Source: an uncultured Dehalococcoidia bacterium (lineage in GTDB: Bacteria; Chloroflexota; Dehalococcoidia; DSTF01; JACRBR01). From it: a DNA stretch of 64,000 nucleotides. Below the pieces are notes generated by a model. The model was not told the origin of the DNA. It did no database searches and saw nothing but the letters and a program-made list of their open reading frames with translations. The stretch lies in the NCBI GenBank assembly GCA_964371095.1, contig CAYJMJ010000004.1, positions 17,651 to 81,650 on the forward strand, written 5' to 3'. Shown piece after piece: positions 19,200 through 41,418 of the stretch (its first letter is position 1; every line of letters begins with the position of its first letter). The translations under genes and the position numbers were made by a program.

Positions 19200-20729
19200 G
19201 TGTTGAACAGCGTTCGCTCCCGCCTCATCGCATCGTTCGCGCTGATCGTCGTGATCACGCTGGCCACGGCCGGGCTCGCGCTCTTCGCGCGGCTCGGCGG
19301 CTATCGGGACCAGATCGACGCCGGCACACTTCGCTCCACCGCCGCGCCGGTCTACTACAACCTCACCTTCTTCCCGGATGCACTGAAGGCCGATTCGGTG
19401 ACCGGCCGCCGCCTCCGCACCGAACTCACGTCGTACCTCCGGCTGCAGGCGCAGGACGCCGGCGTCATCGTCGTCCTCATCGATGCACAGGGCAACGTCA
19501 TCAACGAGGGCGCCACCGACGAGCGCTTGCTCGACGCGCACTTCGACGTGCCACCGCCGCCCGCGCGCGGCCCCGACTTCAAGCAGCTGCCCGAGCAGAA
19601 GTTCGACATCGACGGCGGCGGCACGCTGCTCTACGTCACCGTGCCGACGCCGAGGGTCGTGCGGGCGCAGCCCGCCGGTGTCGCCGCCATCGTCGTCGCG
19701 CTGCCCGAGACCAGCGCGCGCGACGTCTTTCGCGATCTGGCGCCGCGCCTGCTCTTCGCTGGCGCCATCGGCCTCGCCGCCGCGCTTGCCGTCGCGCTCG
19801 TGCTCTGGGCATGGATGTACCGGCCGCTCGGGAAGATCACGCGCGGCATCCGCGCCGTCGCGAGCGGCGACTACCGGCAGCGCGTGCCCGTCTCCGGCCC
19901 CGCCGAGCTGCGCGAGATGGCCGAAGACGTCAACGTGATGGCCGACTCCGTGCAGGTGTCGCAGCGGGCGCTCCGCGAGTTCCTGGCCAACGTCTCGCAC
20001 GAATTGAAAACGCCGCTGACGTCGATCCGCGGATTCTCGCAGGCCCTCGTCGACGGCACCCTCGACACGCCCGAGGAGCGCGCCCGCGCAGCCCGCGTCA
20101 TCGACATCGAGTCGCGCCGCCTCCTGCATCTCGTGGGCGAGCTGCTCGACCTCTCGCGCATCGAATCCGGCCAGCAGGCCATGCGGCTCGCCGCCGTACC
20201 CGCGTCCGAGCTGCTCGCGCACGTCCGCGACGTCTTCTCGATGCGCGAGGAGGAGAGCGGCGTCGCGCTCCGCATCGCCGCCCCGGACGATGCCGTCGTC
20301 TCCGCCGATTTCGATCGCATCGAGCAGGTGCTCGGGAACCTGGTCGACAACGCGTTCCGGCACACGCCGGCCGGCGGTTGGATCGAGGCGGGCGTGCGCC
20401 GCGCGAGCCCCGGCTTCGTCGAGTTCTACGTTAGCGACAGCGGCACCGGCATCCCGGAGGCGGAATTGCCGCACGTCTTCGACCGCTTCTACCGGAGCAG
20501 CGGCGAGCCGTCCGGTACCGGCGCCGGCCTCGGCCTCGCGATCTCCCGCGAGATCGTGCGCGCGCACGGCGGCCAGATTCGCGCCGAGGCGCCTGTCGCG
20601 GGCGGCACGACCTTCGTCTTCACGCTGCCGGTCGCGGGAGGAGCATCGCCGTCGCCGTCATCCGGGAATCGCGACCGCCCGTCGCCCCGGCTGACGCCGC
20701 CTTCCGAAGTACGGCGCGCCGGCGGCTAG
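19200..20729 (+). CDS. sensor histidine kinase (2 TM, periplasmic sensor, HAMP, HisKA, HATPase_c)
   Basis: H-box SHELKTPLTSIRGF, plus N, G1 (DSGTGI) and G2 (GTGAGLGLAI) boxes. Confidence 0.9.
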   Translation: MLNSVRSRLIASFALIVVITLATAGLALFARLGGYRDQIDAGTLRSTAAPVYYNLTFFPDALKADSVTGRRLRTELTSYLRLQAQDAGVIVVLIDAQGNVINEGATDERLLDAHFDVPPPPARGPDFKQLPEQKFDIDGGGTLLYVTVPTPRVVRAQPAGVAAIVVALPETSARDVFRDLAPRLLFAGAIGLAAALAVALVLWAWMYRPLGKITRGIRAVASGDYRQRVPVSGPAELREMAEDVNVMADSVQVSQRALREFLANVSHELKTPLTSIRGFSQALVDGTLDTPEERARAARVIDIESRRLLHLVGELLDLSRIESGQQAMRLAAVPASELLAHVRDVFSMREEESGVALRIAAPDDAVVSADFDRIEQVLGNLVDNAFRHTPAGGWIEAGVRRASPGFVEFYVSDSGTGIPEAELPHVFDRFYRSSGEPSGTGAGLGLAISREIVRAHGGQIRAEAPVAGGTTFVFTLPVAGGASPSPSSGNRDRPSPRLTPPSEVRRAGG

Positions 20730-22450
20730 CCGTTCGCTCTTACGTAGGACTCCCGCGGCAAGAAGTACGCCCGAAACGTCACCTCGCCGCCGCGCCGCCC
20801 TTCGGCGCTCGTGCCGCCGCTGAAGCGAAGCATCACGCCGTCGGCGTCCGAGAGATACGAACCGAGGAAGACGTACACGACGTCCGTGCTGCGGTCCGGA
20901 ACCGGATCGCCGGCGCCGCCGACGATGGGCAACCGCGTGCCGAACTCCTTCGAGCGATCCTCACCGGTGTATCCCGGCGCGAGAAACCGCCGCGTCTCGT
21001 AATCGAACGACCAGCGGTCGCTGTAGAAGTACACGTACGTGTCCTTCGGCAAGCCGTCGATATACCGCGAAGCGGCATCGATCTCGTACGGATACACGAG
21101 GCGCATCGCGGCGGTCTGCTGTACAGGCCCGAAGTACTGCCAGACGGAGCTAACGCCGGCGATGGCGACGGCGCCGATCGCGACGGCGAGGCCGGCCCGG
21201 CCGGACAGCCGTCGCCGCGCCTGCCACGCCGTTTCCCAGATCCACGCGAGCGGAAGCGCGGCGAGCAGCGCCACGAACGGCGCCAGTCCCAGCGTGCGCC
21301 GGAACAGTCCGTCCTCGACCGTGAGCAGCGCGCCGAGCGGCAGCACGACGCACGCCGCCAGCACGACGGCGTACTCCGGCCTCCGCCAACTCCAGATCGC
21401 GATGCCGAGGCCGGCGAGCGCCAGCAGCGACATCCACGGACCCACCGCCGGATGACCCGCCGTCGCCAGCCCGTCGCCGAAGTCCGGCCGGTCGCCCAGG
21501 ATGAGCCCCCGTTCGAGTTCGGCCGCGCGGTTCCAGATCAGCTTGGCCCTTCCCGGCCCCCCCGCGTCCTTCCACTGGCTCGACGACGTGAGGCCGACGA
21601 CGCGATCGTGCTGCCGGTACTCGCTCCCGTGCGTGCGCGCGTACTCGATCAGCGGCGCCGCCGTCGCCAGCGCGCACACGGCGAACACGGCGCAATCGAC
21701 GAGCAGGAAGCGCGCGCGGCGGCGCCATCCCCGCTCGTACAACGTCGCCCAGGCGAGCGCAACGAACGGCACCGGCACGAACAGCAGGTATGCGTTGTAG
21801 CTGTACACGCCGAGGCCGTGGAGCGCGCCGGCGATCCCGAACAGCCAGAAGCTGCGCCGCCGGAACGCCAGCCACAGCGCCCACAGGACCAGCACCTCCA
21901 TGAACGGCCAGGAAACGACCATGAACGCCGTGCGGCTCAGGTGCAGGTGCCACATCATTACCGCCAGCAGCGTGGCGCCGAACGCCGCCACGGTGCGGTT
22001 GAACATGCAGGCGAACGCCGCATACGCGAGCGGGATGGTCGCCACCCCGAACAGCGCCATCGAGAAGCGCGCCGTGAACGTCGTGTCGGGCAGGAACTTG
22101 AACAGCGCCGCCGTGACGTAGAGCGGCCCCGTCGGCTGCCCGAGCGCGCTCGTCACGTACGGGCCGATCCACCCCTCGCGGAGGATGCGCTGCGCGTCAA
22201 GCGCCGTCCACGCCTCGTCGCCGTGCAGGCCGAGCGGCACCGCGCCGAGACGCCAGAAACGAAGCAGTGCCGCCAGGACCGTGACGGCGGCGACGATCGC
22301 GAGGTCGGTCCGGGCGCCGGCGAGCGAGTCAGCCAGGCGCCGCGCCGTCGATCGGGTCGGCGCCGCAGCGGCAGCTTCGGGACGCGCGCCGGAAGCCGCC
22401 GCCGGCTCAACGATCACCTGGCACTCCCGTGAAACGCGACTGCGAGGCAT
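20726..22450 (-). CDS. GT39/ArnT-like membrane glycosyltransferase (PMT family)
   Basis: Polytopic membrane protein; the N-terminal region WRLGAVPLGLHGDEAW is typical of undecaprenyl/dolichyl-phosphate sugar transferases. Start chosen at MPRSRVS. Its 3' end overlaps the kinase gene by 4 nt. Confidence 0.8.
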   Translation of the reverse strand: MPRSRVSRECQVIVEPAAASGARPEAAAAAPTRSTARRLADSLAGARTDLAIVAAVTVLAALLRFWRLGAVPLGLHGDEAWTALDAQRILREGWIGPYVTSALGQPTGPLYVTAALFKFLPDTTFTARFSMALFGVATIPLAYAAFACMFNRTVAAFGATLLAVMMWHLHLSRTAFMVVSWPFMEVLVLWALWLAFRRRSFWLFGIAGALHGLGVYSYNAYLLFVPVPFVALAWATLYERGWRRRARFLLVDCAVFAVCALATAAPLIEYARTHGSEYRQHDRVVGLTSSSQWKDAGGPGRAKLIWNRAAELERGLILGDRPDFGDGLATAGHPAVGPWMSLLALAGLGIAIWSWRRPEYAVVLAACVVLPLGALLTVEDGLFRRTLGLAPFVALLAALPLAWIWETAWQARRRLSGRAGLAVAIGAVAIAGVSSVWQYFGPVQQTAAMRLVYPYEIDAASRYIDGLPKDTYVYFYSDRWSFDYETRRFLAPGYTGEDRSKEFGTRLPIVGGAGDPVPDRSTDVVYVFLGSYLSDADGVMLRFSGGTSAEGRRGGEVTFRAYFLPRESYVRANG

Positions 22451-27183: not shown

Positions 27184-28767
27184 TCAATCCTGCGGCACAG
27201 GCCGCTCCAACTCCTCGATGGGGATCGGCATGTGGCAGTAACTGCAGGACGCTTCGTTCAGCGGGTCGCCGCCCAGACGCGATTGGCCCTGGCTGCCGAG
27301 GTCATGGCAGGTGAGACACCCGCCGCCGCCCAGGCCGCCGGAAAGCTGCTTACCGGTGGTGACGTTGACCAACTTGGCATGGCAACGGAAGCAGCCCGTA
27401 TTGACGTCAAGCCTGCCTATCGCATGCCCGCGGTTCTCCGCGTAGGTGAGCCAGCTCGTGTTCATGTCCGGATAGAACACCAGCGTCGAGATGCGTTTCA
27501 ATTCGTCGATCGCGGCTCGGATAGATGACTCCTTCACCGCGGCTATGTCTGGATAGTCAGTCCGATAGAACTCCTGTAGCTGCTCGAACCACCCGGGTTG
27601 TTTCCATTGCGCGGCCTGCGCCGCAGGATCGGTGACGGTAGCGTCGTGGATGCCCATCAGCCGGAGTGCTTCCCGTTTCAGGTACGGAAGGCTGGCGTCC
27701 ATGCGGCCGGCCGTGAGCGCGTCGTCGATGAGCGTATCCGGGGCAGGGATCTTGTGAGCCGCCCTATTGTGGCAGTCGATGCAGTCCATGAGGCGTTCGT
27801 TCTGCAGCTCCTGCCCCTCCGACACGTTCGGATTAACCCACTCGTCGTTGCCCTCGGGCTTTTCCACGACGACGCGGCCGATGACTTGCCGCTGTTCGTC
27901 GGCCGAGCGGTAGTAGACCTTCGCCGACGTGTGCCAGTGGACGCCGCCCGCCTCCTCCAGCAGGCTGCCGCCCGTGCCGACTCGGAACGCCAGGGCGCGG
28001 GCGTGAAGGGTGTTGTTCTCGTCGGGGAGGTAGGACCGGTACACGCGAAGGAAGAGGCCGTGCGCCTGCTCGCGCCAGTGGCACCCCTCGCATGTGGCGC
28101 GCGCCGGGCGGAGGTTCTTGGCCGGAGCCGGCACCGGCCTGGGGAACGAATTCGTCACGACGGCTGCCAGCTGGCCCATCCCTCCCAGCTTCGATTTCAC
28201 GTACCAGCTCGCCCCGGGCCCGATGTGGCAGGCGGTGCAGCGCACTTCGGCATGAGCAGAGCGCTTGTAGGCCTCATATTGGGGCTTCATGACCGTGTGG
28301 CAGAGCCGGCCACAAAAGGCCGGAGAGTCCATGAACTCCACCGTCCGATATCCGGTGGCCCCCAACATCCCCGCGATCACCGCGGTGAGTGTGGCGAAGA
28401 GCAGGATTGCCCTCAGGTGCTGGGGATTGCCGAAGTCCACTTGCAGGGCGGGCGGGGCACCTTGGCCCCGCCGTGCGGCGGCCGCCTGCCGACGCGCTTC
28501 CCAGAGCATACCTGCGGGCACAAGAACGAGACCCAGGACGAGCACCGTGGGCAGGGCCGTGAAAACCAGCATGCCGATGTAGGGGCTCGTCTCCACGTCG
28601 AAGACCTGCGACGTGAGAAGGAAGGCGAGACTGCCCAGACCGGCGGACACCAGCACGCCTCCCAGCAGGGAGATCGGGTTGCGAGCCAGGTGGCGGGCAG
28701 GCGAGTCGTTCATGGCGCCGCGTCCAGATTCATTCTCGGTGCGCTCGTTCAGTTGCCTACCGGTCAA
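27184..28767 (-). CDS. membrane-anchored multihaem cytochrome c (7 CxxCH)
   Basis: Three N-terminal transmembrane helices, then CGRLCH, CTACH, CEGCH, CIDCH, CFRCH, CLTCH and CSYCH. An alternative start at MNDSPAR (28716) is possible. Confidence 0.8.
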   Translation of the reverse strand: MTGRQLNERTENESGRGAMNDSPARHLARNPISLLGGVLVSAGLGSLAFLLTSQVFDVETSPYIGMLVFTALPTVLVLGLVLVPAGMLWEARRQAAAARRGQGAPPALQVDFGNPQHLRAILLFATLTAVIAGMLGATGYRTVEFMDSPAFCGRLCHTVMKPQYEAYKRSAHAEVRCTACHIGPGASWYVKSKLGGMGQLAAVVTNSFPRPVPAPAKNLRPARATCEGCHWREQAHGLFLRVYRSYLPDENNTLHARALAFRVGTGGSLLEEAGGVHWHTSAKVYYRSADEQRQVIGRVVVEKPEGNDEWVNPNVSEGQELQNERLMDCIDCHNRAAHKIPAPDTLIDDALTAGRMDASLPYLKREALRLMGIHDATVTDPAAQAAQWKQPGWFEQLQEFYRTDYPDIAAVKESSIRAAIDELKRISTLVFYPDMNTSWLTYAENRGHAIGRLDVNTGCFRCHAKLVNVTTGKQLSGGLGGGGCLTCHDLGSQGQSRLGGDPLNEASCSYCHMPIPIEELERPVPQD

Positions 28768-28937
28768 GCCGTGAACGACGGTGGCAACGTTGCGAACGGC
28801 CTCCGCGACGCATTGTTCTGTGAGCCATGTCGCACGTCAATAGCCTTGAAGCCGGCAGATCGCACGTACACATCGTCCCTCCGCCGCCGATGCTACGATG
28901 AACTACGCCCGCGATCGCACCTGACGGAGCGCTGCGC

Positions 28938-30773
28938 ATGACCTCATCCTTTCACTTCTCGCCGCGTCCGAACCGCGCCGCCGAGATCCGCTGGACCGAG
29001 TGGGGCACCGGCGCGTTCGAGCGAGCGCGGCGGGAGGACAAGCCGGTGCTGCTCGGCATCTCCGCCGTCTGGTGTCACTGGTGCCACGTCATGGACGAGA
29101 CGTCGTACTCCGACGGCGAGGTCATACGTCTGATCAACGAGCGGTTCGTGCCGATCCGCGTCGACAACGACCAGCGCCCCGACATCAACGCCCGCTACAA
29201 CATGGGTGGCTGGCCGACCACCGCGTTCCTGACGCCCGACGGCGAAGTGATGGCCGGCATGACGTACGTGCCACCGGACCAGATGCGCGACGTGCTCGCC
29301 CAGGTCAGCACGTACTTCCGTGACAACCGCGCCGACATCGACGCCAAGATCGCCGATATCGTCGCGCGCCGCGACGCCGAACGCAGCGCTTCCACGGCAT
29401 CCGGCGCCGAACTGTCGGACCAGATCCTCCGCGACGCGCTTCACGCCGCGAACGACGCCTACGACCCCGTCTTCGGCGGGTTCGGCGGCGAGCCGAAGTT
29501 CCCCCACACCGAGGCGATCGACCTGCTGCTGCACGTCCACCTGCGCGACGGCGACCGTGACGCCCTCCACATGGCGCGCAAGACGCTCGCGCACATGTAC
29601 GGGGGCGGCACCTACGACCAGGAGTGGGGCGGTTTCTATCGATACTCCACGAAACGCGACTGGAGCGTGCCCCACTACGAGAAGATGATCGAGGACAACG
29701 CGCTGCTCCTCCGCAACCTGCTCAAGCTGTACCGCATCACGCGGGATCCGCAGCACCGGCACTACATCGATGCCACGATCGCCTACACGGACACGTGGCT
29801 GTCCGATGCCGCGTCCGGGGCGTTCTACGGGTCCCAAGACGCCGACGAGGAGTTCTACCCCCTGCCTGCGGCGGAGCGCGCGCGCCGCACGGCGCCGTAC
29901 GTCGACCAGACGATCTACACGAGCTGGAACGCCATGGCGATCAGCGCCTACCTCGAAGCGTCGTGGACGTTGGACCGCCGCGATCTCGAGGAACGCGCGC
30001 TTCGCGCGCTCGACTTCCTCTGGAACCGGCTGCAGACCGGCGGCGCCATGTACCGCTACTTGACACCGGACGGGCCGCGCATCGCCGGCCTGCTCGAGGA
30101 CCAGGCGTGGGCGGCCGCCGCCTGCCTCGATGCGTACGAGGCCGCCGGACGGCCGCCGGACCTCGAACGCGCGCAGACGCTTGTCCGCTTCATGCGCGAC
30201 CGGCTGGCCGCCCCGGGTGGCGCCTTCTACGACACGCCGGCGGAGCACGAGACGCTCGGGCGGCTCGCCCTCCGTCAGACGCCGGTGAAAGAGAATGCCG
30301 TCGCGGCAGGGGTCATGGTGCGGCTCTCGCGCATGACGCACGATGCCGATCTCGAGGCAGCGGCTCGCCGCGCGTTGCTGCCGTTCGCCGGAATCGTCGA
30401 ATCGCAGGGCCACTTCGCCGCCGGGTACGCGACGGCGGTCGACGTGCTGCTGGATCCCGGCGCCGACGTGCGGATCGTCGCTCCGCCGGGCGACCGCGTC
30501 GGGCCGATGCGCGCGGCCGCGCTCGCACTCGCCGTCCCGAGCCGCACCGTGCGCGTCATCGACGATTCGGATGGCGACGCGTTGGAGCGCGCTGGGCTGC
30601 CCGCCCGGCCGTCGCCCGCGGCATACGTCTGCTACGGTACGCTCTGCTCGGAGCCCGTCACAGCGCCCGCCGATCTGGCCGAGGCCGTCCGGCGGACGCG
30701 CGAGGCCTACGAGCGGACGCGTCACATCGAACCGCTCGCCGGACCCCGCACGGGTCGTATGGCGAGCGACTGA
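28938..30773 (+). CDS. thioredoxin-domain protein, DUF255/YyaL family (Trx fold plus six-hairpin glycosidase-like domain)
   Basis: WCHWCHVMDETSYSD CxxC thioredoxin-like N-terminus and the DUF255 signature (YDQEWGGFYRYSTKRDWSVPHYEKMIEDNALL). Confidence 0.85.
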   Translation: MTSSFHFSPRPNRAAEIRWTEWGTGAFERARREDKPVLLGISAVWCHWCHVMDETSYSDGEVIRLINERFVPIRVDNDQRPDINARYNMGGWPTTAFLTPDGEVMAGMTYVPPDQMRDVLAQVSTYFRDNRADIDAKIADIVARRDAERSASTASGAELSDQILRDALHAANDAYDPVFGGFGGEPKFPHTEAIDLLLHVHLRDGDRDALHMARKTLAHMYGGGTYDQEWGGFYRYSTKRDWSVPHYEKMIEDNALLLRNLLKLYRITRDPQHRHYIDATIAYTDTWLSDAASGAFYGSQDADEEFYPLPAAERARRTAPYVDQTIYTSWNAMAISAYLEASWTLDRRDLEERALRALDFLWNRLQTGGAMYRYLTPDGPRIAGLLEDQAWAAAACLDAYEAAGRPPDLERAQTLVRFMRDRLAAPGGAFYDTPAEHETLGRLALRQTPVKENAVAAGVMVRLSRMTHDADLEAAARRALLPFAGIVESQGHFAAGYATAVDVLLDPGADVRIVAPPGDRVGPMRAAALALAVPSRTVRVIDDSDGDALERAGLPARPSPAAYVCYGTLCSEPVTAPADLAEAVRRTREAYERTRHIEPLAGPRTGRMASD

Positions 30774-30792: not shown

Positions 30793-31050
30793 ATGACATC
30801 AGAACAAGAACGGACGGCCGCCAGGCCGATTGAGGCCGCACGACCGAGACGCCGCATCATGCCGGTGCTGGGCGGCATCGCCGCGGCGGCTCTCGGCCTG
30901 TTCCTGTTGCAGAACCTGCAGGAGGTGGACGTGCACTTCCTCTGGTTCAGCTTCAGCACGCGTCTCACGTGGGCGCTGCTCGCCTCCACCGCCTTCGGCG
31001 TCATCTCGCTCGCCGCCTTCTCGATCTTCCGCCGCCGCGACGAGCGTTGA
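30793..31050 (+). CDS. small membrane protein (LapA/DUF1049-like), 85 aa
   Basis: AGGAGG Shine-Dalgarno 6 nt upstream of the ATG and two transmembrane helices. It lies in an alternative frame of a longer spurious ORF. Confidence 0.6.
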   Translation: MTSEQERTAARPIEAARPRRRIMPVLGGIAAAALGLFLLQNLQEVDVHFLWFSFSTRLTWALLASTAFGVISLAAFSIFRRRDER

Positions 31051-31065
31051 CCAAGCGACCGCGCA

Positions 31066-31090
31066 GTCATCCTGAGCGAAGCGAAGGATC
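31066..31090 (+). repeat. dispersed intergenic repeat, copy A (GTCATCCTGAGCGAAGCGAAGGATC)
   Basis: Read directly from the sequence; matches 21 of 25 positions with the copy at 31187-31211. Confidence 0.7.
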
Positions 31091-39579: not shown

Positions 39580-39628
39580 ACTTCACGTCAAGATCCAGGT
39601 TCTAGGTTCTCCCACCCGGAGGTGCCCG

Positions 39629-40456
39629 ATGTCTGAAGACGTACTGATCGACAAGCGCGACGACGGCGTGGCGCTGATCACGCTCAACCGGCCCGACAGC
39701 CTGAACGCGATGGGCGGCAGCCTCATGCCGATGCTCGCCGAGTACCTGCAGGACTGCTCGGCCGACCGCCGCGTGCGCGCCGTCGTGCTCACCGGCGCGG
39801 GCCGGGCGTTCTGCGCCGGCGGCGACGTCAAGGGCATGGCCGCCGGCCGCGATACGATCACCGGCAGCGACGGCGACAGGTCGCCCGCCTCCGCTTTCGC
39901 CCACGGCGTCGAGCAGCTCCGCACCGCACAGCGCTCCACGAGCTACGTCCTTCACACCATGCCCAAGCCGACGATCGCGATGGTAAACGGCCACGCTGTC
40001 GGCGCCGGCCTCAGCCTCGCGCTCGCCTGCGACATCCGCATCGCCTCCGACCGCGCGAAGCTCGGCACCGTCTTCCGCAACGTCGGCTTCAGCGGCGACT
40101 TCGGCGGATCGTACTTCCTGCAGAAGCTCGTCGGCATCGGCAAGGCGCGCGAACTCTACCTCACGGGCGAGATCCTCCTGGCCGACGCCGCACTTGCGAT
40201 CGGCATGGTCAACCGCGTGGTCGAGCACGAACGCCTCCACGAGGAGACGATGGACCTCGCGACGCAGCTCGCGTCCGGCCCGACGCTTGCTTACGCACGC
40301 ATGAAAGAGAATCTGAGCCGCGGAGAGACCTGCGACCTGCTGACGCTCCTCGACCAGGAGGCGCTCAACATGAGCCTCTCCGCGACGACGAGCGACCACC
40401 AGGAGGCGGCGCGCGCATTCGTCGAGAAGCGCCAGCCGTCGTTCAAGGGGAGCTAA
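39629..40456 (+). CDS. enoyl-CoA hydratase/isomerase
   Basis: Crotonase fold (LTGAGRAFCAGGDV...GHAVGAGLSLALACD). GGAGGTG 6 nt upstream of the ATG. Confidence 0.9.
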   Translation: MSEDVLIDKRDDGVALITLNRPDSLNAMGGSLMPMLAEYLQDCSADRRVRAVVLTGAGRAFCAGGDVKGMAAGRDTITGSDGDRSPASAFAHGVEQLRTAQRSTSYVLHTMPKPTIAMVNGHAVGAGLSLALACDIRIASDRAKLGTVFRNVGFSGDFGGSYFLQKLVGIGKARELYLTGEILLADAALAIGMVNRVVEHERLHEETMDLATQLASGPTLAYARMKENLSRGETCDLLTLLDQEALNMSLSATTSDHQEAARAFVEKRQPSFKGS

Positions 40457-40518
40457 CGTACTGACCCGGCGGATCTCACGCTGGCGTCAGCGCTGCGGCG
40501 GTGTAGAACGGGTGCTCG

Positions 40519-41337
40519 TTATCCGGCCGACGTAATCGACTCGATCCGCACGCGGAACGTGCCGGACGGCGCTTCGATTTCGACCTCTTCGCCTGCGCGG
40601 CGCTGGTACACCGCCTTGCCGACGGGCGATGCGATCGAGATCTTCCCCTGACCCGAGCGCACTTCATCCGGGTTCACGAGCGTGTAGCTCTTCGCATCGC
40701 CGGTGCGCAGATCTTTGATCGTTACCACGTCGCCTATCTGCGAGATGTCGCCCGGGTGCTCCGCGCCCTGGTCGAGCACGACGGCGTGCCGCAGCGTGCC
40801 GTCGATCTCGCGGATGCGCGCCTCCAGGTGACCCTGCTCGTTCCGCGCGGCGTCGAGCGGCGCGTTCTCGCGAAAATCCTTGTCGGCCATCGCCCGCGCC
40901 AGGTCCGCCTGGATCTCCGGACGCCGGTTCTTCAGCGCGTCCAGCTCCTGGACGAGGGCCTCGTGACCGTCTTTCGTCAGGTAGATCGGTTGGACCTCGT
41001 CCCGCTGGGCGTTCGCGCTCGATTTCGACGCCTTGCGCACACGCAGGTGCGTCCCGAGGTTCTCCGTCGTCAATCCGCGATCCTTCGCCCACTTGAGAAA
41101 CGCGCGGACGAAATCCGCGCGTTTGGCTGCATCCGATACCGTAGGGGGGAAATTCTCCGCGTACTGCGCAACTTCGTGGCCGCGCATCGTCGAAAGGTCT
41201 CGTTCGGGTCCGGCCCATCGCACGAATTTCAGCACCTCTGGCTGCGCGCCCTGCCGGATCGGCGCCTTCAGCGAGGCCAGATATATCGTCGCGACCTCCT
41301 GAAGCGTGCCCTGCACTGTCGTCGTATCACCCGCCAT
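40519..41337 (-). CDS. GreA/GreB-family transcription elongation factor homologue with extended N-terminal domain
   Basis: C-terminal FKBP-like GreA domain (IGDVVTIKDLRTGDAKSYTLVNPDE...ISIASPVGKAVYQRRAGEEVEIEAPSG) and a coiled-coil region. Start at MAGDTTT, preceded by AGGAGG. Confidence 0.7.
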   Translation of the reverse strand: MAGDTTTVQGTLQEVATIYLASLKAPIRQGAQPEVLKFVRWAGPERDLSTMRGHEVAQYAENFPPTVSDAAKRADFVRAFLKWAKDRGLTTENLGTHLRVRKASKSSANAQRDEVQPIYLTKDGHEALVQELDALKNRRPEIQADLARAMADKDFRENAPLDAARNEQGHLEARIREIDGTLRHAVVLDQGAEHPGDISQIGDVVTIKDLRTGDAKSYTLVNPDEVRSGQGKISIASPVGKAVYQRRAGEEVEIEAPSGTFRVRIESITSAG

Positions 41338-41418
41338 TGATGCCCATTCCTCCTGCCCTTCTTCCTGATTGTAGGCAGCGACCGATAAGGCGTCAAACAG
41401 CGCTGCTATCATCACGCC

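Follow-up and report, generated by a model that had tools for sequence, protein, structure and literature searches.

ImcH is, to our knowledge, one of the few known proteins through which electrons leave the quinone pool for extracellular acceptors. It makes up a branch of its own within the NapC/NirT/NrfH quinol dehydrogenases, carries seven haems in the Geobacter type and 6-10 in the family overall, and serves as a genomic marker for metal and electrode respiration. In Geobacter, this inner-membrane cytochrome passes menaquinol electrons outward (PMC4251993; 10.1101/2023.05.03.539133). Its signature comprises three transmembrane helices, a CX3CH motif right after the third helix, six CX2CH motifs, a NapC/NirT-like region and a length of 495-519 aa (PMC4251993, PMC6295460). 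ImcH function has been tested in G. sulfurreducens alone; as far as these two accounts go, menaquinol oxidation, reduction of periplasmic cytochromes and the requirement for high-potential extracellular acceptors are known only from the genetics and biochemistry of that organism (PMC4251993; 10.1101/2023.05.03.539133). A survey of 2018 listed a single Chloroflexi homologue, from Anaerolinea thermophila (Zhong & Shi, PMC6295460), which is the sole mention we found in the literature; we came across no dedicated report on ImcH in Dehalococcoidia or Chloroflexota. The canonical NapC/NirT/NrfH/CymA layout is a single N-terminal transmembrane helix with four haems (five in TorC), and NrfH (Desulfovibrio vulgaris, PDB 2j7a/2vr0) and NapC in addition have CXXCHXM as their first motif and work with a reductase dedicated to them.

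The window, a 64 kb stretch of DNA from a high-GC Dehalococcoidia-type Chloroflexi MAG, encodes a multihaem cytochrome at 27184..28767 on the minus strand. The longest reading begins at a TTG and gives the 527 aa reported in an earlier sequence-only reading. The N-termini of homologues and the gene call on an identical public contig, a 509-aa protein (P0001) with 100% identity to the cytochrome, favour the ATG at 28713, which is likely the true start. The features of the gene are as follows (minus strand throughout; aa and residue numbers of the 527-aa reading).

27184..28713, minus strand: imcH-like gene, 509-aa seven-haem membrane cytochrome c, stop codon 27184-27186 included (longest ORF to TTG 28767)
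28600..28677, minus strand: transmembrane helix 1, aa 31-56 (hydropathy, AF2 helix, translation check)
28492..28590, minus strand: transmembrane helix 2, aa 60-92, with an Arg-rich loop after it on the cytoplasmic side (hydropathy, AF2, loop charges)
28348..28419, minus strand: transmembrane helix 3, aa 117-140, counterpart of the single NrfH helix, adjoining the putative quinol site
28063..28347, minus strand: NrfH/NapC-like module with haem motifs 1-3 and putative menaquinol site (K193 at 28189-28191, Q199 at 28171-28173)
28297..28314, minus strand: haem motif 1, atypical CX3CH (CGRLCH), from the motif scan; also a feature of ImcH (PMC4251993, PMC6295460)
28225..28239, minus strand: haem motif 2, CTACH (motif scan)
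28078..28092, minus strand: haem motif 3, CEGCH (motif scan)
27769..27783, minus strand: haem motif 4, CIDCH, inside the family signature M-D-C-I-D-C-H-N (motif scan, alignments)
27232..27405, minus strand: C-terminal cytochrome-c7-like tri-haem domain, presumed electron exit
27379-27393, minus strand: haem motif 5, CFRCH, in the tri-haem domain
27304-27318, minus strand: haem motif 6, CLTCH, in the tri-haem domain
27232-27246, minus strand: haem motif 7, CSYCH, in the tri-haem domain

The three hydrophobic helices found by hydropathy correspond to AF2 helices at aa 13-37, 44-81 and 97-128 (509-aa numbering), and the loop charges obey the positive-inside rule, consistent with the N-terminus lying inside and the haem domain outside. 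The three N-terminal helices of the sequence-only reading are borne out. Its seven CxxCH motifs are indeed seven haem motifs, but the first of them is a CX3CH (aa 152-157), 12 residues past the third helix, and only the remaining six, at aa 177, 226, 329, 459, 484 and 508, are CXXCH. All six CXXCH columns are invariant or nearly so in a 61-sequence family alignment. Seven haem motifs in one ORF are far beyond chance; across the six frames of the window, the only other stop-to-stop ORF of at least 50 aa with a CxxCH owes it to the CHWCH thioredoxin motif of the neighbouring DUF255 gene. A CXXCK-type catalytic motif is absent from the cytochrome. The last three motifs lie in a region that resembles the tri-haem PpcA/cytochrome c7, with a match to Pfam Cytochrome_C7 (28 bits, cut-off 24.8); here, however, this region is joined to a membrane quinol dehydrogenase, and the c7 pattern of distal histidines is kept only in part.

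Together, the data indicate that the cytochrome is very probably a Chloroflexi (Dehalococcoidia) member of the ImcH family. It has the full ImcH signature: three transmembrane helices, CX3CH after the third, six CX2CH, the NapC/NirT-like region and the length. In BLASTP, a protein from a Geobacter sp. MAG (L038) aligns end to end with the cytochrome, query 12-494 to subject 12-491, at 33.9% identity over 502 aa (E 7e-104), so that homology covers the full length, though at only ~34% identity; the direct comparison is with this MAG orthologue rather than with GSU3259 itself. L038 carries E127, H137, K173, Q179 and Y188 at exactly the residue numbers given for G. sulfurreducens ImcH by Pimenta et al. 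2023, and is therefore identified as a true ImcH orthologue. Six further homologues from Geobacter, Geobacteraceae, Syntrophus and deltaproteobacterial MAGs gave E values of 1e-98 to 1e-102, and the first haem motif of the Geobacter homologues is CGELCH or CGEVCH. The pocket residues H137, K173 and Q179 map to H139, K175 and Q181 of the cytochrome (509-aa numbering), the latter two being K193 and Q199 in the 527-aa numbering, and the His, Lys and Gln of the haem-1/quinol pocket are invariant in 61 family members. Glu127 is conservatively replaced by Asp129 (509-aa numbering), in a column where an alignment of 18 sequences has D or E throughout, and Tyr188 by Phe190 (509-aa numbering), where most of the 18 sequences have Tyr and an 83%-identical relative (P0004) also has Phe. 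Comparison of the predicted structure revealed an NrfH-like fold for the third helix and the first four haems.

The likeness to Geobacter ImcH (GSU3259; PMC4251993; Pimenta et al. 2023, 10.1101/2023.05.03.539133, Protein Sci 32:e4796) extends over the three N-terminal helices, the CX3CH followed by six CXXCH, the size of ~505-510 aa and an NrfH-like first module with its pocket His, Gln and Lys. The two differ in their hosts, the Geobacter protein coming from diderm Desulfuromonadia, in the Asp and Phe replacements, and in a stretch of ~10 additional Gly-rich residues that the cytochrome has between motifs 5 and 6. The family is conserved over its full length, with ~2,000 matches and presence in at least 563 species genomes; this genome scan returned Acidobacteriota, Bacteroidota and Geobacter types, with no Chloroflexota among the matches listed. 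Homologues from Acidobacteriota, Bacteroidota and Ignavibacteria share the full-length architecture at 34-41% identity. Finding a clear homologue in a genome of Dehalococcoidia type adds to the case that the capacity for metal or electrode respiration may reach the Chloroflexi, and the generic label "NapC/NirT family cytochrome c" is thereby corrected.

The misfit to the NapC/NrfH layout of one helix and four haems, pointed out in the sequence-only reading, is confirmed. Against NrfH and NapC, the cytochrome shows three helices, seven haems, CX3CH-x-x-M as first motif and no partner in the window. NCBIfam holds no ImcH-specific model; its best match, NrfH, stays below cut-off (60.4 vs 134.2 bits), as do NapC/NirT (19.4 vs 310.6 bits) and TorC (23.2 vs 478.2 bits), while the generic Pfam Cytochrom_NNT passes (35.5 vs 24.1 bits). 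With three helices, seven haems and family scores this far under the cut-offs, membership in the canonical NapC/NirT/NrfH/CymA group was rejected.

By analogy with the Geobacter protein, the three helices would hold the cytochrome in the cytoplasmic membrane, its haem domain facing outward, and menaquinol would be oxidised, as Geobacter experiments suggest, in a pocket beside helix 3 and haem 1, the latter held by the CX3CH with the conserved Gln199 and Lys193 (527-aa numbering) close by. Protons would be let out on the outer side of the membrane, so that the step would be electroneutral yet preserve the proton motive force. Electrons may then run through all seven haems to the exposed C-terminal one, which would hand them on to the product of a gene elsewhere in the genome, either a soluble or wall-associated redox partner or an extracellular acceptor. 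From Geobacter, then, we infer that quinol is oxidised, which way the electrons flow and that the protein serves the respiration of extracellular acceptors of high potential. The standalone quinol-oxidising, electron-exporting module proposed in the sequence-only reading fits the role shown experimentally for ImcH, with the family assigned by full-length homology. The guess would thus be correct but not new, because ImcH is already known for the same role. Indeed, the claim to novelty fails: the cytochrome clearly matches a characterised family with partners encoded elsewhere, and shows no conserved linkage to DUF255 (below), the combination which that reading had itself named as its refutation. 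We conclude that the finding is an ordinary family assignment.

The real remaining difference lies in a Chloroflexi-type clade, as judged from its sequences, in the C-terminal exit domain and in gene context. Three histidines of this domain are missing in 37/37 Chloroflexi-type sequences, with no His, Met or Lys substitute at any of the three positions, whereas the same histidines are 100% conserved in the Acidobacteria-type clade and have equivalents in Geobacter. Compared with Geobacter ImcH, the cytochrome has no FxHPVD between motifs 6 and 7, and the histidines of DGxH and NHxxH are missing too. In the model of Geobacter ImcH, haems 2-7 have bis-His ligation (10.1101/2023.05.03.539133), which needs six conserved non-motif histidines, but just five of those in the cytochrome are conserved (H154, H259, H261, H320 and H430). 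Met417 is universally conserved, three further, non-conserved histidines lie in the soluble domain, and the C-terminal part of the structure models is of low confidence. As three conserved histidines are lost, ligation of the exit haems and their redox potentials may differ. This loss is a difference between subfamilies and no bar to membership of the ImcH family. The Chloroflexi-type gene is also usually an orphan, while the Acidobacteriota, Bacteroidota and Ignavibacteria homologues, which retain the three extra distal histidines and in some cases have an eighth haem motif, lie within 3 kb of a gene with at least 3 haem motifs in 68/80 genomes, often with an 11-haem protein immediately downstream.

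The host lineages are generally regarded as being without an outer membrane, and the altered exit domain together with the orphan context raises the testable question of how the ImcH module has adapted to a different cell envelope. It is conceivable, though we think it unlikely, that the Chloroflexi/Dehalococcoidia-type ImcH is a functionally distinct subfamily, in which one or two exit haems would be His/Met, His/other or five-coordinate and whose single protein would link menaquinol to an acceptor, external or soluble, without the periplasmic shuttle or outer-membrane conduit used in Geobacter. If so, the acceptor might have a higher potential, or the protein might even reduce it catalytically.

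The surroundings of the cytochrome gene bear on a second reading. Pfam on ~55 ORFs and a six-frame CxxCH scan detected no reductase, other cytochrome, Ccm or ResB/CcsA gene in the window, confirming the absence of a reductase partner noted earlier; NrfA, NapAB, TorA and DorA, the cognate reductases, were each absent by Pfam, and the CxxCH scan revealed no cytochrome gene in the ~27 kb to one side and the ~35 kb to the other. The 64 kb hold no menaquinone pathway either. The cytochrome could be a CymA- or NrfH-like hub, i.e. a quinol dehydrogenase of a generic kind that would supply one or several dedicated soluble-substrate reductases encoded elsewhere (e.g. nitrite, nitrate, DMSO, arsenate, fumarate) rather than extracellular electron transfer. 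We consider this improbable. The N-terminal haem module is NrfH-like in sequence and fold, CymA shows that one such protein can serve many partners (10.1101/2023.05.03.539133), and one relative (L087) has a molybdopterin oxidoreductase ~6-9 kb off; however, the NrfH, NapC, TorC and CymA-type models score far under their cut-offs while ImcH homology, by contrast, spans the full length, and no reductase is linked in the window or recurs among seven close relatives, whose context was taken from contigs encoding homologues at 85-52% identity. One same-clade relative (L083) lies near System II ResB/CcsA genes and another (L085) near System I Ccm genes, and the lineage is therefore able to make c-type cytochromes.

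The loss of the exit-domain histidines without replacement in all Chloroflexi-type sequences, and the mostly orphan state of the gene, could also be read as signs of a self-contained quinol:substrate reductase, in which one or two C-terminal haems without a distal histidine would offer an open substrate-binding site. Its sole basis is the missing ligands, against which stand the three additional histidines of the soluble domain, the universally conserved Met417 and the low confidence of the models in this region, and the cytochrome has no catalytic motif of the CXXCK kind; we regard this reading as very improbable. Slightly less probable still is that the cytochrome works in reverse, as a quinone reductase that takes its electrons from a donor in the periplasm or outside the cell, for instance Fe(II) or a reduced shuttle. 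Electrons can by nature run either way through a multihaem chain, and both metal reducers and metal oxidisers have proteins of the CymA and CbcL types (PMC6295460), but ImcH homologues have so far been tied only to quinol oxidation and Fe(III) reducers (PMC6295460), and the haem potentials of Geobacter ImcH, -350 to -150 mV, suit menaquinol oxidation (10.1101/2023.05.03.539133).

As an ImcH-family gene, the cytochrome resembles Geobacter imcH also in its transcription, the latter being monocistronic (PMC4251993). Both flanking genes are on the opposite strand, and the cytochrome gene is hence necessarily a single-gene transcription unit. A simple scan found no intrinsic terminator 3' of it, and tRNA and Rfam scans of the window gave no matches. 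Two features lie on its upstream side.

28812..28840, minus strand: sigma-70-like promoter match, TTGACG-17-AACAAT, between the two divergent genes, on the 5' side of the cytochrome gene
28938..30773, plus strand: DUF255/YyaL-type thioredoxin-fold protein, 611 aa, CHWC motif, not judged part of the system

The promoter is a consensus match only, with 1 found vs 0.2 expected. The divergent neighbour, 224 nt from the ATG of the cytochrome gene, is DUF255/Thioredox_DsbH (PF03190, 130 bits, E 9.5e-38), in agreement with the CxxC-containing DUF255 (YyaL) protein of the sequence-only reading, which had also raised a conserved pairing of the two genes. That pairing did not hold up: by tblastn (E <= 1e-3), a DUF255 relative was present within ~10 kb of a cytochrome homologue at 0/87 non-self loci, and Pfam listings contained no DUF255 near the close relatives at 85%, 83%, 66%, 65%, 62%, 57% and 52% identity. 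The neighbour has neither a signal peptide nor a transmembrane segment (maximum KD19 0.92), and is predicted to be cytoplasmic. Hence a functional redox pair, e.g. one that reduces thiols so that haem can be attached or one that relays electrons between disulfide and haem, for which the common intergenic region of the divergent genes and the CHWC redox motif might speak, is barely credible given its absence from all 87 loci and the lack of export or membrane signals, and we consider it effectively refuted. The suggested partnership is spurious, the adjacency is a coincidence of one genome and the neighbour is unrelated to the cytochrome. Downstream of its thioredoxin domain, the DUF255 protein carries a weak GlcNAc-2-epimerase-like match.

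Analysis of the cytochrome gene and of its divergent neighbour placed the following features in the window:

27184..28767, minus strand: imcH-like open reading frame in its longest reading, 527 aa from a TTG start
28297-28299 and 28288-28290, minus strand: His157 of the first haem motif and Met160 (527-aa numbering)
27232-27405, minus strand: C-terminal histidine losses (Y424 for H; V449 for H in CFRCHDGxH; FxHPVD deleted)
28938..30773, plus strand, divergent from the cytochrome gene: DUF255/Thioredox_DsbH protein (Pfam, 130 bits)

The sequence-only reading had described a 527-aa protein with three N-terminal helices and seven CxxCH motifs. Hydropathy analysis upheld the helices (aa 31-56, 60-92 and 117-140, 527-aa numbering) and the motif count held as well, but the first motif is CX3CH (CGRLCH, aa 152) followed by six CXXCH, and ATG 28713, the called start of the identical public metagenome protein P0001 and consistent with the N-termini of aligned homologues, favours 509 aa. 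An acidic TM1-TM2 loop and an Arg-rich TM2-TM3 loop indicate that the haem domain lies outside the cytoplasmic membrane. A six-frame scan of the 64 kb window revealed only one other CxxCH-containing ORF, the DUF255 neighbour, whose CHWCH is a thioredoxin active site, and therefore the cluster of haem motifs is not a matter of chance. Given that both flanking genes, encoding gamma-glutamyltranspeptidase downstream and DUF255 upstream, lie on the opposite strand, we concluded that the cytochrome gene is a single-gene transcription unit.

Pfam assigned aa 120-207 to the NapC/NirT N-terminal region and aa 455-512 to a cytochrome-c7-like region, the NCBIfam similarities to NrfH, TorC and NapC were all sub-threshold, and NrfH was the only, weak, sequence relative in the PDB. 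The search for homologues yielded about 2,000 proteins of ~510 aa that aligned over their full length, from sources including Dehalococcoidia, Chloroflexi and Acidobacteria, the descriptive names being "NapC/NirT family cytochrome c" or "nitrate/TMAO reductase-like tetraheme cytochrome c subunit". Geobacter sulfurreducens ImcH (GSU3259) has three transmembrane helices, a NapC/NirT-like region and seven motifs of which the first is CX3CH (Levar et al. 2014, PMC4251993), and its homologues in the Geobacter group are 495-519 aa long with three transmembrane motifs, one CX3CH and six CX2CH (Zhong & Shi 2018, PMC6295460); the window protein matches the published description exactly in helices, NapC/NirT-like region, motif number and CX3CH. 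Scanning genomes with the family alignment identified relatives in at least 563 species genomes, including several MAGs of Geobacter. One of these, a Geobacter sp. (L038), encodes a protein carrying E127, H137, K173, Q179 and Y188 at the ImcH residue numbers of Pimenta et al. (2023, bioRxiv 10.1101/2023.05.03.539133), indicating that it is an ImcH orthologue, and residues 12 to 494 of the window protein align with it at 33.9% identity (E 7e-104). The haem-1 proximal His, the Gln proposed as distal ligand and the quinol-site Lys are kept in the window protein and are invariant in 61/61 family members, whereas Glu127 and Tyr188 of Geobacter ImcH are replaced by Asp and Phe. Together, the data indicate that the window cytochrome is a member of the already known ImcH family.

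Architecture, homology, pocket residues and fold were observed in this analysis; the chemistry and the direction of electron flow would be those of Geobacter ImcH by homology. By homology with the characterised Geobacter protein, menaquinol would be oxidised in a pocket that TM3 and haem 1 form, protons would be released to the outside, and electrons would run along seven closely spaced haems to the last one, which is exposed, and from there to a partner. The earlier suggestion of standalone quinol-oxidising electron export thus matches the function published for ImcH, is already known and is homology-based here. In all 61 family members a methionine lies three residues past the CX3CH histidine (C-x3-C-H-x-x-M). 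It is reminiscent of the haem-1-ligating methionine of CXXCHXM in NrfH, whereas the published ImcH model has His/Gln ligation of haem 1 without a role for this Met.

Of 80 genomes from other phyla, 68 have a second gene encoding three or more haem motifs no further than 3 kb from the imcH homologue, and 58, mostly Acidobacteriota, have a large multihaem cytochrome gene no further than 1 kb away; in two Acidobacteriaceae (L002 and L008) that cytochrome is immediately downstream and carries 11 CxxCH in a stop-to-stop ORF of 645-864 aa. This suggests that in those phyla imcH homologue and multihaem cytochrome belong to a conserved module of two genes, which the Chloroflexi clade lacks. A second gene encoding three or more haem motifs was found within 3 kb in only 2 of seven Chloroflexi relatives, none was present in the fetched stretch of four of the seven, and the 64 kb window holds none besides the cytochrome gene itself. 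The exit domain differs as well. Three histidines (NHxxH, DGxH, FxHPVD) present in 100% of the Acidobacteria type, with equivalents in Geobacter, are absent from the Chloroflexi-type clade (37 of 61 aligned sequences, all at least 50% identical to the window protein), and no conserved His, Met or Lys substitutes for them in these 37 sequences. For haems 5-7, H430 and M417, the latter universally conserved, are the only candidate distal ligands left. Haem motif 6 is lost altogether in four clade members (P0054, P0057, P0060 and P0061), and an eighth motif occurs in seven members of the Acidobacteria type. The clade is recognisable as a subfamily by its lost histidines and sparse cytochrome neighbours; that its exit domain may behave differently we only infer from the sequences, as confidence in the C-terminal part of the models is low. 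It seems quite improbable that this exit domain, depleted of ligands, is functionally distinct and suited to a cell that lacks an outer membrane.

Among the Chloroflexi-type relatives, the following neighbourhoods were seen:

L085, 7579-11542; L082, 16858-21527; L084, 537-5200: kinase and regulator neighbourhoods
L083, 4024-7394: cytochrome cluster 3-6 kb upstream of the imcH-like gene, in a relative at 65% identity

In Dehalococcoidia-type relatives, dCache-HAMP-HisKA_3 sensor kinases and GerE-type regulators adjoin the imcH-like gene or pairs of multihaem-cytochrome and cytochrome-b genes. In L085 the regulator gene and the start of the imcH-like gene share 4 nt, and L082 encodes a 912-aa kinase with a fused Ni_hydr_CYTB cytochrome-b domain, a possible redox sensor. 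The L083 cluster encodes a multihaem cytochrome, a Fer4_11 iron-sulfur protein, an NrfD-type membrane protein and a second multihaem cytochrome, and a ResB/CcsA/DsbD_TM maturation cluster follows downstream of its imcH-like gene; the window genome, unlike L083, has no such cytochrome-rich island at this locus. Pfam annotation of the 64 kb window detected no Ccm, ResB/CcsA, reductase or other cytochrome, in agreement with the sequence-only reading that no obvious reductase partner is encoded there. Relatives of the same clade lie near maturation genes (System II at L083, System I at L085), indicating that the lineage makes c-type cytochromes.

A conserved pairing of cytochrome and DUF255, also considered earlier, was not borne out: none of 87 other loci (the 80 genomes of other phyla and the seven Chloroflexi-type relatives at 85-52% identity) has a DUF255 relative up to about 10 kb from the cytochrome gene, and the one contig with the same arrangement, L001, is near-identical and comes from the same population. 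No hydrophobic segment was found in the DUF255 protein, which should therefore be cytoplasmic, whereas the haems are outside the membrane. Absence from the other loci and the predicted cytoplasmic location refute a functional link, and the adjacency is a local accident. An 85-aa ORF (30793-31050, plus strand) directly follows the DUF255 gene and is among the gene calls of the identical public contig; the overlapping ORF 30830-31075 had no Pfam match.

The remaining window encodes housekeeping functions according to Pfam, including aminoacyl-tRNA synthetases, Lon, GGT, ABC transporters, two-component systems, DnaJ and IlvD. The DnaJ falls into a cluster of at least 90% identity with a protein named as being from a Dehalococcoidia bacterium, and several of the cytochrome homologues likewise carry Dehalococcoidia or Chloroflexi labels. 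The L001 gene calls also revealed a 563-aa PMT_2-type glycosyltransferase (~20725-22416, minus strand), and 39620-41415 holds an enoyl-CoA-hydratase-like and a GreA-like ORF; these three genes have no bearing on the cytochrome.
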